Positions 8,773 through 18,576 of a stretch of 37,240 bases of DNA are shown here, piece after piece; the first letter of the stretch is position 1; each line of letters starts with the position of its first letter. The translations under genes were made by a program, and so were the position numbers. Source of the DNA: Candidatus Nomurabacteria bacterium. GTDB lineage: Bacteria > Patescibacteriota > Minisyncoccia > Phycocordibacterales > JAACPR01. Below the pieces are notes generated by a model. It saw only the letters and a program-made list of their open reading frames with translations, was not told the DNA's origin and ran no database searches. The stretch lies in the NCBI GenBank assembly GCA_020632215.1, contig JACKFZ010000001.1, positions 83,444 through 120,683 on the forward strand, read 5' to 3'.

Positions 8773-8940
8773 TTCATAAAAAATTTAATCTTTCTTTAAT
8801 GTAGCTTTATTAACAATTGTTATAATTAACTTAGGTGGCCCTCGCACCAGTTTAGTCAAAGGATAAACGGTGTGGGGCTAGTCCCGAACCGAGCTTTGCT
8901 CTGGTTCGGGGTAAGTGGTTAACCCCCACCCTTGGGCGGG
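8773..8940 (+). repeat. Copy 1 of a promoter plus conserved 40-nt unit, with a 73-bp palindromic insertion (8838-8910)
   Basis: Colinear with 18481-18576. aacttaggtg|gtaagtggttaacccccacccttgggcggg is identical once the insertion is removed. Confidence 0.85.
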
Positions 8941-8969
8941 CGTATTTTCTAAGTTTTTGAAATTTTTAT

Positions 8970-9422
8970 TTAAAACAACCCTTCTACCACTTCTTTAACA
9001 TCTCCACCATCTGCTTTGTCTTTCAAATCTTTCATCAGAGCTCCCATCAACATTCCCATCTTTGCCTTATCATCAATACACATTTCTGTTTTCTTAGCTT
9101 CGGCTATCTTTAGAATCTCATCTTTAGACATCATTTGAGGTAAATATGACTCAATAATCTTCAACTCAGCTTCTTCTTTTTCTGCCAAATCTTCACGACC
9201 ACCTTTTTTGAATTGTTCTATTGAATCTTTTCTTTGCTTTGATTGTCTTTTGATAATGGTCATGACTATCTCATCCGTCACTTCATCTTGAGGAGTTTTG
9301 CCAGTGGCCACTAGCTCATTGGTAAAAGCTGAGATAAAACCCCGAAGGACGCCAAGCTTCACTTCCTCTTTTGCCTTCATTGCTTCTTTTAATTCTGATT
9401 TGATTTGATCTACTAGAGCCAT
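8970..9422 (-). CDS. GatB/YqeY domain protein
   Basis: IKSELKEAMKAK, IIKRQSKQRKDSIEQFKKGGREDLAEKE and MGMLMGALMK patterns of YqeY. Confidence 0.9.
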   Translation of the reverse strand: MALVDQIKSELKEAMKAKEEVKLGVLRGFISAFTNELVATGKTPQDEVTDEIVMTIIKRQSKQRKDSIEQFKKGGREDLAEKEEAELKIIESYLPQMMSKDEILKIAEAKKTEMCIDDKAKMGMLMGALMKDLKDKADGGDVKEVVEGLF

Positions 9423-9489
9423 TGTTTTAAATTTAAATGATATTAATCAGTCCATTTTAGCATGACTTTGGATATGCTAAAATACTGCC

Positions 9490-10560
9490 ATGTCTTCAGA
9501 ATCACTACTCATAATCTTCATATTGTTGGTGCTTAATGGAGCTCTGCTTTATCTATTTTGGAAAAAAGGAAGTGAAAAGAAGGATGATTCATCCGTTCAA
9601 ATCTTGATGAATCAAATTAATGAAGTAAATAGAACTCTTTCTGATTCTCAGAAAAATATTAACGAATCTGTAACCAATCAATTTGATAGATCACAGAAAC
9701 TGATTCAAGAAATTGATAGAAAATTCAATGAACAATTGAAAGATGTAACCCAAGGCTTTACTTCTTTTAATGAAAAGACAAATCAGATTTTTAATATTAC
9801 CGAACAGTTGCAAAACTTAGAAAAGACTCTGAAACATCAAAAGCAAAGAGGAAGTCTAGGTGAAGCAAGTTTGGAATTAATACTTTCAAATATTTTGCCA
9901 CCAACTGCTTACAAGATGCAGTATTCGTTTAAAAATGGGGAAACAGTTGATGCCATTATTATGACCAAAGACGGATTGATACCTGTGGATGCAAAGTTTT
10001 CTTTAGATAATTACAACAGAATCATTAATGCTATTGATGATGAGCAAAAAGAAAAATTAGAAAAAGATTTTAGAAATGATTTGAAGAAAAGAATAGATGA
10101 GACAGCAAAGTATGTAAGACCAGAAGAGGGAACATTACCTTTTGCTTTTATGTTTATCCCTGCTGAAGGAATTTATTATGATTTGCTGATAAATGAAGTT
10201 GGCGCTGTGAAGGTCAATGCTAGAAATCTAATAGATTATGCTTATAACGATAGGAAGGTGATTATTGTTTCTCCAACTACTTTTGCGGCTTATCTCCAAT
10301 CGGTACTGTATGGCTTTAGGGCTTTCAAGATAGAGGAATCAGCTCATGAGATTAGAAAGTATGTAGGAGAATTACAAAAGCACCTGAAGGCCTATGAGGA
10401 GTATCATACAAAGCTTGGAAATACTCTATCTACTACAGTCAATCATTATAATCAGTCAAATAAGGAGTTTGGTAAAATAGATAAGGATATATTGAAAATA
10501 TCCGGTTCTTCTATGGATTTAGACCTACCGCAACTTGAAAAGCCACAGAGCGGGGAATAA
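9490..10560 (+). CDS. rmuC: DNA recombination protein RmuC
   Basis: TM plus coiled coil; RGSLGE, VDAII, IPVDAKFS, FAFMFIPAEGIY and VSPTT motifs. Confidence 0.9.
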   Translation: MSSESLLIIFILLVLNGALLYLFWKKGSEKKDDSSVQILMNQINEVNRTLSDSQKNINESVTNQFDRSQKLIQEIDRKFNEQLKDVTQGFTSFNEKTNQIFNITEQLQNLEKTLKHQKQRGSLGEASLELILSNILPPTAYKMQYSFKNGETVDAIIMTKDGLIPVDAKFSLDNYNRIINAIDDEQKEKLEKDFRNDLKKRIDETAKYVRPEEGTLPFAFMFIPAEGIYYDLLINEVGAVKVNARNLIDYAYNDRKVIIVSPTTFAAYLQSVLYGFRAFKIEESAHEIRKYVGELQKHLKAYEEYHTKLGNTLSTTVNHYNQSNKEFGKIDKDILKISGSSMDLDLPQLEKPQSGE

Positions 10561-11083
10561 GTTCGAAATACGAAAAACGAAATTCGAAACAAGCATTAAA
10601 TTTCAATAAATAAATTATAAACAAATAGTGAAATTTATATTTGTTTAACATTAAAGCCAGGCATTATATTTATTAGTAATGTCAAAAATTTATGATTTAG
10701 AGGAAAGAACCAGAGGATTTGCATTATCTGTCAGAGATTTAATTCATAATTTAGAGAAAACCCAGGCGAATTTGGAGTATTCAAGGCAGTTAATAAGGTC
10801 TTCAGCTTCGATTGGTGCAAATTATATAGAAGCCAACGAGTCTCTTGGTAAGAAAGATTTTTTGATGAGACTGAGGATTTCCAGAAAAGAAGCCAAGGAA
10901 AGTTCGTATTGGCTTAGTTTATTGGAAATAGGACCACATTTAGAAGATAAAGTATCCAATTTGAAAAAAGAATCAATCGAGCTTATGAACATAATGGCCT
11001 CAATCATAAGAAAGTGTCAATAGAGCCTATTTATTGGGTAGAATTTAGAATTTGTTTCGTATTTCGATTTTCGTATTTCGTGC
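10561..11083 (+). mobile_element. Four-helix-bundle gene cassette bounded by heptamer-periodic inverted repeats
   Basis: 10564-10591 (cgaaata cgaaaaa cgaaatt cgaaaca) pairs with 11053-11080 at 26/28 positions. The cassette starts immediately after the rmuC stop. Confidence 0.8.
10679..11023 (+). CDS. Four helix bundle protein (TIGR02436 / 23S rRNA IVP-like family)
   Basis: DLEERT...FA, QLIRSSASIGANYIEA, DF...LRISRKEAKESSYWL and EL..I..SII motifs. Confidence 0.92.
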   Translation: MSKIYDLEERTRGFALSVRDLIHNLEKTQANLEYSRQLIRSSASIGANYIEANESLGKKDFLMRLRISRKEAKESSYWLSLLEIGPHLEDKVSNLKKESIELMNIMASIIRKCQ

Positions 11084-11095
11084 TTTATATGACCC

Positions 11096-17478: not shown

Positions 17479-17487
17479 TTCACAGTT

Positions 17488-17931
17488 ATGAAAGTGTTAT
17501 TTTTGCAGAGCGTAGCCAAAGTAGCTAATAAGGGAGAAATTAAAGATGTAAATCAAGGATATGCTACTAATTTTCTTTTACCTAGAAAATTAGCAAAGGT
17601 TATTTCTGGAAAAGAAGAAGAACAAATTAAAAAGAGTGATACACAACAAAGAGAGATAAGTAAAATTAACCATGATCTCTTTGAAAAAGAAATACATTCG
17701 CTAAAAGGGAAGGAGCTAATAATAAAAGAAAAAGCTAATGAACAAGGACATCTATTTTCAAAAGTTCACAAAGATGAAATACAAAAAGCTTTGAAAGAAC
17801 AGTTGCATGTTGAAATAAATCAAACTTTGATAAATGTTGATGAACCAATAAAATCTGTTGGCACATTCGATGTAATAATAGGGGATAAGAAGGTTAATGT
17901 TAGTATCAAAGTGATGGTGGAAAGTGTTTAA
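17488..17931 (+). CDS. rplI: 50S ribosomal protein L9
   Basis: MKVLFLQSV...GEIKDVNQGYATNFLLP and GHLFSKV motifs. Confidence 0.93.
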   Translation: MKVLFLQSVAKVANKGEIKDVNQGYATNFLLPRKLAKVISGKEEEQIKKSDTQQREISKINHDLFEKEIHSLKGKELIIKEKANEQGHLFSKVHKDEIQKALKEQLHVEINQTLINVDEPIKSVGTFDVIIGDKKVNVSIKVMVESV

Positions 17932-17939
17932 AGATATAT

Positions 17940-18476
17940 ATGAAAAAACCAAAATCACTCAAAATTACCTATTTAGGTAACAAAGTTTTGAGACATAAAG
18001 CAAAATCTGTAAAACAGACAACTGACAAAAAAATTCAAGATTTTATAGATAATTTAATATTAACTTGCAAAACAGCTAAAGGTGTTGGTATTGCGGCGCC
18101 TCAGGTTAACAAATCTGCAAGAGTGATGATTGTCTGGTCACATCCAAATAAAAGATATCCTAAAGCACTAAATATGAAACCTGTTGCCATGATCAATCCC
18201 AGAATATTAAAAAAGTCTAACCAAAAAGAAAAAGATTGGGAGGGGTGTCTTAGTATACCAGGGATAAGGGGCTTAGTTCCTAGATATAAATGGGTTGAGG
18301 TTGAATATGTCAACAGAAAGGGAGAGAAAGTGAGGGAAAAATTATCAGATTCATTTGTGGCACGAATTTTTCAACATGAACTTGATCATTTAAATGGTGT
18401 TTTATTTATAGACAGGACTAAGAGTAGAGATTTAATTGGGGAACAAGAATACCAAAAGTTAATAAAGAAAAACTAA
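17940..18476 (+). CDS. def: Peptide deformylase
   Basis: GIAAPQV, EGCLS and HELDH motifs. Confidence 0.95.
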   Translation: MKKPKSLKITYLGNKVLRHKAKSVKQTTDKKIQDFIDNLILTCKTAKGVGIAAPQVNKSARVMIVWSHPNKRYPKALNMKPVAMINPRILKKSNQKEKDWEGCLSIPGIRGLVPRYKWVEVEYVNRKGEKVREKLSDSFVARIFQHELDHLNGVLFIDRTKSRDLIGEQEYQKLIKKN

Positions 18477-18480
18477 AAAA

Positions 18481-18576
18481 TTCATAAAAAATTTAACTTT
18501 TCTTTTATTTTTCTTTATATCACTTATGCTAAAATGAACTTAGGTGGTAAGTGGTTAACCCCCACCCTTGGGCGGG
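18481..18576 (+). repeat. Copy 2 (uninterrupted) of the promoter plus conserved 40-nt unit
   Basis: See 8773-8940; TGc-TAAAAT at 18527-18535. Confidence 0.85.

Follow-up and report, generated by a model that had tools for sequence, protein, structure and literature searches.

A lineage-specific family of promoter-led intergenic units as candidate small RNA genes in a Candidatus Nomurabacteria genome

The stretch of DNA analysed here (37,240 nt, referred to as the window) belongs to a Candidatus Nomurabacteria bacterium (GTDB lineage Bacteria; Patescibacteriota; Minisyncoccia; Phycocordibacterales; JAACPR01; GenBank assembly GCA_020632215.1, contig JACKFZ010000001.1, positions 83,444 to 120,683 of the forward strand), whose genome of 719 kb is 94% complete and has a GC content of 35%. 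It carries two copies of an intergenic repeat in which a promoter-like box is followed by a short, hairpin-containing sequence. Copy 1 points towards the 3' end of yqeY (8970-9422, minus strand; Pfam PF09424, E 1.7e-39), and copy 2, which lies directly behind the co-oriented peptide deformylase gene def (17940-18476, plus strand; PF01327), points towards the 3' end of rpmA, encoding L27 (18633-18911, minus strand; PF01016). An earlier note on this DNA, made from the letters alone, had described both copies as facing these two gene ends, and the Pfam matches agree with it. It had also described the spans 8773-8940 and 18481-18576 as colinear and as sharing an invariant 40-mer. The repeat is real; however, the 40-mer (AACTTAGGTGGTAAGTGGTTAACCCCCACCCTTGGGCGGG) is unbroken only in copy 2 (18537-18576), whereas in copy 1 it is split by 73 nt (8839-8911). 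This insert explains why the two spans had been given lengths of 168 and 96 nt.

Both copies lie on the plus strand. In copy 1 the conserved 55-nt promoter box (8773-8826; 37.7 bits with our covariance model R1) runs from a sharp 5' boundary at TTCAT to the extended -10 element TGtTATAAT (8818-8826), with TG at 8818-8819 and the -10 hexamer at 8821-8826. Transcription is predicted from the position of the -10, 7 nt upstream, to start at A8833, the first base of the 5' motif AGGTGG (8833-8838). The insert comes next and holds two hairpins, H1 (8837-8880, which uses the GG of the 5' motif) and H2 (8883-8910; CCCGAACCGAGC-UUU-GCUCUGGUUCGGG). It is followed by the core TAAGTGG-TTAA-CCCCCACCC-TT-GGGCGGG (8912-8940, reading TAAGTGGTTAACCCCCACCCTTGGGCGGG), whose terminal hairpin (8925-8940) contains an A.C mismatch, and by a tail (8941-8967) with T-runs at 8945-8948, 8954-8958 and 8963-8967, which ends 2 nt before the stop codon of yqeY (8970). 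The two hairpins of the insert are strong; folding of the complete RNA gives a minimum free energy of -53 kcal/mol (z = -3.1).

Copy 2 has the same order of parts. Its box (18481-18535; 35.3 bits) begins with TTCAT 5 nt past the stop codon of def, a gene which has no terminator of its own ahead of the repeat, and ends in TGcTAAAAT (18527-18535; TG at 18527-18528, -10 hexamer TAAAAT at 18530-18535). The short RNA body AGGTGG-TAAGTGG-TTAA-CCCCCACCC-TT-GGGCGGG (18542-18576) has its predicted start at A18542 and its terminal hairpin at 18561-18576. The tail (18577-18607) consists of AAATTT, the AT-only hairpin ATCTAAATTTTAAAATTTAGAT and TTTT, and stops 26 nt short of the rpmA stop codon. As had been noted, the AT-rich upstream parts have diverged but keep the extended -10 in register; 8773-8828 and 18481-18536 are homologous, with 79% identity over 67 nt. 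The sequences downstream of the promoter, AACTTAGGTGG and GGTAAGTGGTTAACCCCCACCCTTGGGCGGG, are 100% the same in both copies. Identity amounts to 42 of 42 positions in the core and RNA parts and to about 62% in the 24-nt tail.

The earlier note had counted two dispersed copies and proposed a genome-wide search for more. When blastn, an nhmmer profile, the sequence-only covariance model R1 and a pattern search were applied to the genome, about 26 units were found on 9 contigs. All share one layout, in which an AT-rich box of 55 nt with an (extended) -10 at its end is followed by an RNA body and a U-rich tail. The consensus of the box is TTCATAAAWAWTTTAAMWTTTYTTWTAWGTTTCTTKAK-N10-(TGn)TAnnnT, and homology between units does not extend beyond its 5' edge at TTCAT. 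The RNA body always ends in AAGYGG-UWAR-CCCCCACCC-loop(1-7)-GGGYGGG, with or without inserted hairpin modules. Nothing is added in the minimal bodies C12_23501, C11_30392 and C11_57716, and a short AGGNGG repeat is placed in front in bodies of the copy 2 type. Type A units (n = 5, including copy 1) carry an H1-H2 module, type B units (n = about 10) carry an H1'-H2 module, and three units contain a third, nested hairpin, H4. In the tail, a run of T5-7 followed by AAAA is found 0-16 nt past the hairpin. The association of box and hairpin is tight, since a box lies upstream at a set distance in 21 of 21 sense-strand CCCCACCC..GGGYGGG hairpins of the genome (20-28 nt in short units, 90-107 nt with H1-H2, and 66 or 165 nt with H4). 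The pattern CCCCACCC-N1-8-GGGYGGG itself has 19 matches in this genome, against 0 for a reversed-pattern control. Coding regions follow immediately after the box in only two cases (murC and tgt), and other hairpins follow it in two or three.

All units are intergenic. They occupy mostly gene 3' ends and convergent spacers, and rarely divergent ones. Fifteen of 21 units lie behind a co-oriented gene, 9 of these with a gap of at most 40 nt and no other terminator, and in 13 units a convergent gene or tRNA is faced, its end lying 21-67 nt past the hairpin. About 11 units precede a co-oriented gene, and since most of these downstream genes have a TGnTAnnnT promoter of their own, the units appear to be autonomous. 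An exception is C9_4282, where a Shine-Dalgarno sequence and the ATG of a 251-aa membrane protein follow directly after the hairpin. In about 8 units an ATG occurs 3-8 nt after GGGYGGG, but these tiny open reading frames (ORFs) were rejected as coding because neither their lengths nor their sequences are conserved, the real gene at C9_4282 being the sole exception. No target-site duplications above chance were found (longest flank repeat 5.5 nt on average versus 5.8 nt in mismatched controls), and there are no terminal inverted repeats, the unit ends being TTCAT... and ...T-run. At C11:57413-57716 a unit with H4 stands directly upstream of a co-oriented tRNA-His, with a possible TAGTAT -10 between them; the two may share a transcript.

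The conservation of the box is of the promoter type. Alignment A1 comprises 24 box copies with a mean column identity of 75%. A2 and T6 of the -10 belong to its 14 invariant columns and the inner positions of the hexamer vary, which is the classic sigma-70 pattern. Moreover, a perfect TATAAT is present in 10 of 10 copies without TGn and in 3 of 14 copies with it (one-sided Fisher test, p about 1.5e-4, calculated by hand from A1). Such a trade-off between TG and hexamer is expected if selection has maintained every copy as a functional promoter of the extended -10 type. The box is also found outside the units, at a leaderless-type distance before murC and tgt, and weaker boxes precede recA in two related genera (L094 and L099; genomes G011 and G022) and a helicase-like gene in a third genome, which argues that it behaves as a real promoter architecture. 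The form associated with recA (TTCA-N6-TTTARAC-TTYCTTT...TATAAT) was not found before the recA of this genome; within the family, this form is possibly a regulatory site under conservation. Within the units, the predicted start 7 nt past the -10 falls on the A of AGGUGG (8833 and 18542) or, in minimal units, on that of AAGYGG, and this conserved AAGYGG begins at the same distance from the -10 as the AGGTGG of copy 1.

Compensatory base changes were found in the unit hairpins. They comprise C-G/U-A in H1', G-C/A-U in H2 and C-G/A-U in C9_4282, and C13_12452 has several; with 8 type-B units, RNAalifold gave 34 pairs, of which 3 show double changes. A small element, G-Y-(GGUWA)-R-C, shows U-A in 6, U.G in 3 and C-G in 8 cases and never C/A (p about 0.007, relatedness of the copies being ignored). 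The sense strand is favoured by G.U pairs, both in H1, for which sense folding is the better one in 4 of 5 copies, and in an extension of H2 that contains U.G, while the antisense strand has neither a conserved promoter nor a U-run after the hairpin. Regarding the 3' end, a U-rich tract (5 T in 8 positions) comes right after the hairpin in about 10 of 21 units, and in the others a T5-7 run lies 12-16 nt further on; in C10_49611, C1_3205 and C12_23501 hairpin and U-tract have the canonical arrangement of a terminator. The unit tails hold no second conserved hairpin.

Two structures suggested in the earlier note are not supported. The ACUUA/UAAGU stem of actta-ggtgg-taagt probably lies mostly upstream of the predicted starts A8833 and A18542, and the pseudoknot GGUGG:CCACC shows no covariation: CCACC is invariant, whereas its partner is GGAGG, GGCGG or AGAGG in other copies. 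Known RNAs were compared as well. With Rfam 15, tRNA-Glu was the only match at gathering thresholds in the window, and nothing came near threshold in 8700-9000 or 18450-18650. A mimic of a tRNA T-arm was rejected because the loop does not fit. The end of the core resembles E. coli 4.5S RNA (CCCCCACCC), but signal recognition particle (SRP) RNA was dismissed, as the domain IV motif is missing and RF00169 has no match in the genome. As a separate observation, this whole genome yielded neither a bacterial small SRP RNA (RF00169, E<=1) nor a domain-IV GGAA/AGCA motif by regular expression; the gene may be highly divergent or belong to the 6% that the assembly lacks.

The insert of copy 1 (H1 + CUA + GUCCCGAACCG..CUGGUUCGGGG) corresponds to an uncatalogued two-hairpin module which is linked to tRNA genes and occurs throughout the candidate phyla radiation (CPR). 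A metagenome scan with GTCCCGAACCG-N6-9-CTGGTTCGGG recovered H2 in ten unrelated CPR-like contigs, always as the second of two hairpins and usually beside tRNA or transfer-messenger RNA (tmRNA) genes; Rfam gave no match on the metagenome loci bearing the module. The module is also present behind this genome's own tmRNA, and in type-B units H1' agrees nearly base for base with the hairpin that comes first in loci L080 and L082. The long units thus carry the tRNA-linked module, but here it is not placed behind a tRNA; it lies in the 5' part of a promoter-led mini-gene and lacks a copied tRNA tail. The 73-nt module sits exactly between AGG(U/A)GG and UAAG, as seen from the filled and empty pairs copy 1/copy 2 and C10_35399/C13_37108. 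The empty counterpart of 8839-8911 is the junction 18547|18548 within 18542-18552 of copy 2. In type-B units the module is on the other side of the AGUGG motif, which suggests that the units have gained or lost it more than once.

Outside this lineage the family was not found. No homologues were detected by blastn in 60 relatives, and a covariance model gave none in relatives either; CCCCACCC-N1-8-GGGYGGG has 0-2 matches in each of 400 same-order genomes, no more than chance single hits; the 19-mer of the core has chance matches only in a collection of 185,579 species (GTDB representatives) and no match in IMG/VR viral contigs. Three orthologous sites are empty in relatives of 78-88% identity. 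The spacer after serS measures 359 nt here and includes a 250-nt unit, compared with 120 nt and no unit in L125 (SerRS 83% identical) and 3 nt in L126 (84%). Likewise, L085 (RmuC 78% identical) has no unit on the 3' side of yqeY or between rplI and rpmA, where def is also missing, and neither box nor core is present in 41 kb of congener sequence. Congeners are represented in sequencing runs SRR19514066 and SRR32414324. Logan contigs that match the window with full or 99.8% identity stem from SRR26387399 and SRR32608987, and contigs of near-identical strains (99.8%) break inside a unit core. An analogous promoter-led family was not found in 388 kb of G011, where only palindromic repeats resembling miniature inverted-repeat transposable elements (MITEs) and tRNA-linked modules occur. 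Because the family is not found in relatives and the orthologous sites are empty, its expansion appears to be young and confined to this lineage. A reading of the two window copies as attL and attR of an island was rejected, as the intervening 9.6 kb contains housekeeping genes (rmuC, a ctpA-like gene, rplI and def) syntenic with L085; that the repeat spans a diverged promoter and an internal insert also speaks against it.

We therefore asked which kind of element the units represent, and give slightly better than even credence to their being small autonomous RNA genes, specific to this lineage, that have been multiplied by duplication at the DNA level. The earlier note had offered an undescribed small RNA as one of its two readings, and this one is favoured by the conserved promoter box, the predicted start 7 nt after the -10, the conserved body, the compensatory changes, the U-rich end and the lack of an Rfam match. 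From these features we infer transcription itself, the exact RNA ends and the function as follows. The 55-nt box, with its AT-rich blocks and a TAnnnT -10, usually with TG and without a canonical -35, would recruit RNA polymerase, and transcription would start about 7 nt downstream of the -10, at the A of AGGUGG or AAGYGG. It would end at or soon after the CCCACCC-loop-GGGYGGG hairpin and the U-rich tail. The resulting non-coding RNA would measure about 36-45 nt in copy 2 and 110-190 nt where hairpin modules are inserted, as in copy 1. These RNAs may be co-regulated 'sibling' small RNAs with a common handle, formed by the 5' AAGYGG-UWAR-CCCCC and the hairpin. Since no target signal for a pairing seed was obtained, it seems more likely, with low confidence, that this handle binds a protein or stabilises the RNA than that it serves as a seed for pairing with mRNAs. 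The same hairpin and U-tail would also end the transcript of the upstream co-oriented gene, as in the layout of 3'-untranslated-region (3'-UTR) small RNAs, because most units lie directly behind such a gene. In an extended version, which we regard as a rather unlikely elaboration, about 26 co-regulated micro-genes would produce RNAs of 36-190 nt that share a protein-binding handle (AAGYGG-UWAR-CCCCCACCC hairpin), differ in tails of 12-16 nt and make up a guide, sponge or decoy RNA system, and the units would also act as landing pads for the CPR-wide two-hairpin module. Its exact boundaries in the filled and empty pairs, taken with its different position in type-B units, would then mark it as a mobile element aimed at short stable-RNA genes.

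Several results weigh against small RNA genes. A simple sigma-70 consensus scan calls neither window copy, as there is no -35/-10 pair, and the units in general lack a TTGACA-like -35. A terminator scan likewise calls neither copy; their hairpin has an A.C mismatch and a loop of 2 nt. In about half of the copies the terminal hairpin reads GGGCGGG, which gives A.C on the sense strand and G.U on the antisense strand. Sites complementary to the RNAs are no more frequent at 698 translation-start regions than those for shuffled seeds, and no partner protein was identified. Finally, the family is absent from about 400 same-order genomes and from the orthologous sites of congeners, and such lineage restriction is usually taken as a mark of selfish repeats rather than of host RNA genes (PMC3049150).

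The last point leads to the most serious alternative, a selfish or neutral modular intergenic repeat of the BOX, repetitive extragenic palindrome (REP) or MITE kind that has multiplied recently and whose short transcripts, if any, would be by-products. We consider it unlikely, though still well worth keeping in mind. In addition to the strict lineage specificity and the empty sites (the serS spacer in L125 and L126, the yqeY 3' end and rplI/rpmA in L085), it would account for the modular architecture, in which hairpins are nested as inserts much as in boxA-boxB(n)-boxC (PMC3049150), for the preference for gene 3' ends and convergent over divergent spacers, and for the breaking of short-read assemblies at the units. 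However, the genome has no transposase of the REP-associated tyrosine transposase (RAYT) or IS200/IS605 type, and the units show neither terminal inverted repeats nor target-site duplication above chance. Conservation specific to the -10 and compensation by TG are hard to explain without selection for transcription, and a promoter upstream of the start could not be copied through an RNA intermediate. The other reading of the earlier note, a relic of an IS200/IS605-type end or of an omega-RNA scaffold that guides TnpB or IscB, is barely credible to us. The likeness is loose, a GC hairpin near an element end, and the variable 12-16 nt between hairpin and T-run can be imagined as a 3' guide, but no guide-like variable 5' segment exists. 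Genome-wide there is no match to PF01797 (Y1) or PF07282 (TnpB zinc ribbon/TNB) at E<=0.01 in an assembly that is 94% complete, with positive results in control genomes. Rfam IS605-orfB-I scores 13 bits against a gathering threshold of 94.2, and HEARO and the omega families gave nothing. Furthermore, the hairpins do not form a left-end and right-end pair, and the units carry their own promoter and adjoin no candidate effector gene.

A third possibility is a cis-acting cassette at gene ends, which would terminate and stabilise neighbouring mRNA 3' ends and shield them from read-through, with its promoter part giving regulated antisense transcription towards the convergent gene or donating transcription to the next one. 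It is compatible with the other readings and, as the sole explanation, improbable in our view. The positions of the units agree with it, both the close spacing behind co-oriented genes without another terminator (def ends 5 nt before copy 2) and the convergent stop codons 21-67 nt past the hairpin, as does C9_4282, where the unit forms the promoter and 5' UTR of the membrane protein gene; the box alone probably drives murC and tgt. Yet 4-6 units are antisense to both neighbours and able to terminate neither, no U-run comes after the hairpin on the antisense strand, a promoter of their own is present for most co-oriented downstream genes, and a terminator needs no conserved promoter ahead of it.

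Small RNA genes of this kind can be compared with known systems. Sibling small RNA families with a shared regulated promoter include the streptococcal csRNAs (CiaR), Vibrio Qrr1-5, Listeria LhrC1-5 and Pseudomonas RsmX/Y/Z (upstream activating sequence); the csRNA, Qrr, LhrC and Rsm families comprise 2-9 members each, their conservation extends over a genus or family, and their regulators and targets are known. The units resemble them in being paralogous, short and scattered among unrelated genes, and in having one box upstream of every member, a segment of conserved RNA and a terminator-like hairpin, but differ in numbering about 26 in 0.72 Mb, in their restriction to one species-level lineage and in their inserted hairpin modules. 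Type I 3'-UTR-derived small RNAs (DapZ, MicL) have their own promoter, located within or behind a gene, share a terminator with the mRNA, are single-copy and Hfq-dependent and are conserved with the host gene. Here too a promoter may lie within a few nt of the upstream stop codon, and one hairpin with its U-tract would serve mRNA and small RNA, but the same unit stands behind many unrelated genes. Among repeats, REP/REPIN elements with RAYT have GC hairpins in common with the units, which however form ordered tandem modules behind a promoter instead of inverted doublets and have no Y1 gene; MITEs differ from them by their terminal inverted repeats and target-site duplications. BOX elements (boxA-boxB(n)-boxC) have constant ends that enclose hairpin modules in varying number and are transcribed or co-transcribed (Croucher et al. 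2011, PMC3049150). The build of the units as box + (0, H1-H2, H1'-H2 or H4) + core + tail is modular in the same way, a likeness in kind only. Both they and the S. pneumoniae BOX and RUP/SPRITE repeats (PMC3049150) are dispersed, species-restricted, intergenic, modular, strongly folded and without a transposase of their own, but BOX has no conserved promoter at a fixed distance in each element and occurs in either orientation in transcripts, whereas here 21 of 21 hairpins are linked to the promoter box, the unit has the appearance of an entire gene, and there is no sequence similarity. Promoter reuse by putative mobile promoters, with Correia elements, ERIC and REPIN as promoter-bearing repeats, has also been described (Nijveen, Matus-Garcia & van Passel 2012, PMC3575422). 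The units are similar to these in that one promoter precedes unrelated sequences (murC, tgt, the membrane-protein gene and RNA bodies), but the box nearly always leads a dedicated short RNA body with a terminator-like end and, unlike Correia elements, has no inverted-repeat ends.

To our knowledge, almost nothing is known on non-coding RNA or promoter architecture in CPR/Patescibacteria. If the proposed reading is true, this would be the first multi-copy small-RNA family described in these bacteria, and if the RNAs are made, an unusually high proportion of the spacer DNA in a genome of 0.72 Mb would be devoted to them, with one unit per about 28 kb. In the case of a selfish element, we would be dealing with a promoter-carrying repeat that spreads without a recognisable transposase in a very reduced genome. 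The 24 aligned natural variants of one working-looking promoter provide a test set for transcription initiation in CPR, and the clean filled and empty sites help to decide whether the two-hairpin module linked to tRNA and tmRNA genes is mobile.

Other features were observed in the window and in related genomes. Just upstream of copy 1 lies a GC-rich stretch (8471-8770) with a 61-aa plus-strand ORF (8512-8697) without Pfam match and a terminator-like hairpin with T-tail (8694-8715). On the minus strand, tRNA-Glu (7951-8023) is followed by two 96%-identical repeat blocks about 1.2 kb apart (6476-8023), an array of tRNA-linked modules. Near copy 2, def separates rplI and rpmA, which are adjacent in L085 with a gap of 32 nt. 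Leaving aside a strain copy with 99% identity, Def has its closest homologues at only 63-64% identity, and cyanobacterial proteins come next at about 60%; this suggests that def was inserted at rplI/rpmA, perhaps together with copy 2. A 114-aa ORF (10679-11023), whose product by eye resembles 'four-helix-bundle / 23S rRNA intervening-sequence' proteins, lies within 10559-11085 and is bracketed by 57-nt inverted repeats of CGAAATACGAAA-type, of which a third copy is located at 3194-3352. In congener L091 the corresponding position behind rmuC is occupied by other repeat-rich sequence. In contig 1 of G011 (L105-L124; e.g. 71746-71862, 135977-136080 and 290251-290371) the MITE-like elements are perfect palindromes of 110 nt with AAAAATAAAAA ends, present in at least 10 copies, and the tRNA-linked modules of G011 end in GGGGTCGCGAACACTTAG...GTGACCGA. 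Lastly, inverted arrays of TAGTAAA-type heptamers and a perfect 22-nt tandem duplication were observed at 21675-21756 and 20966-21009.

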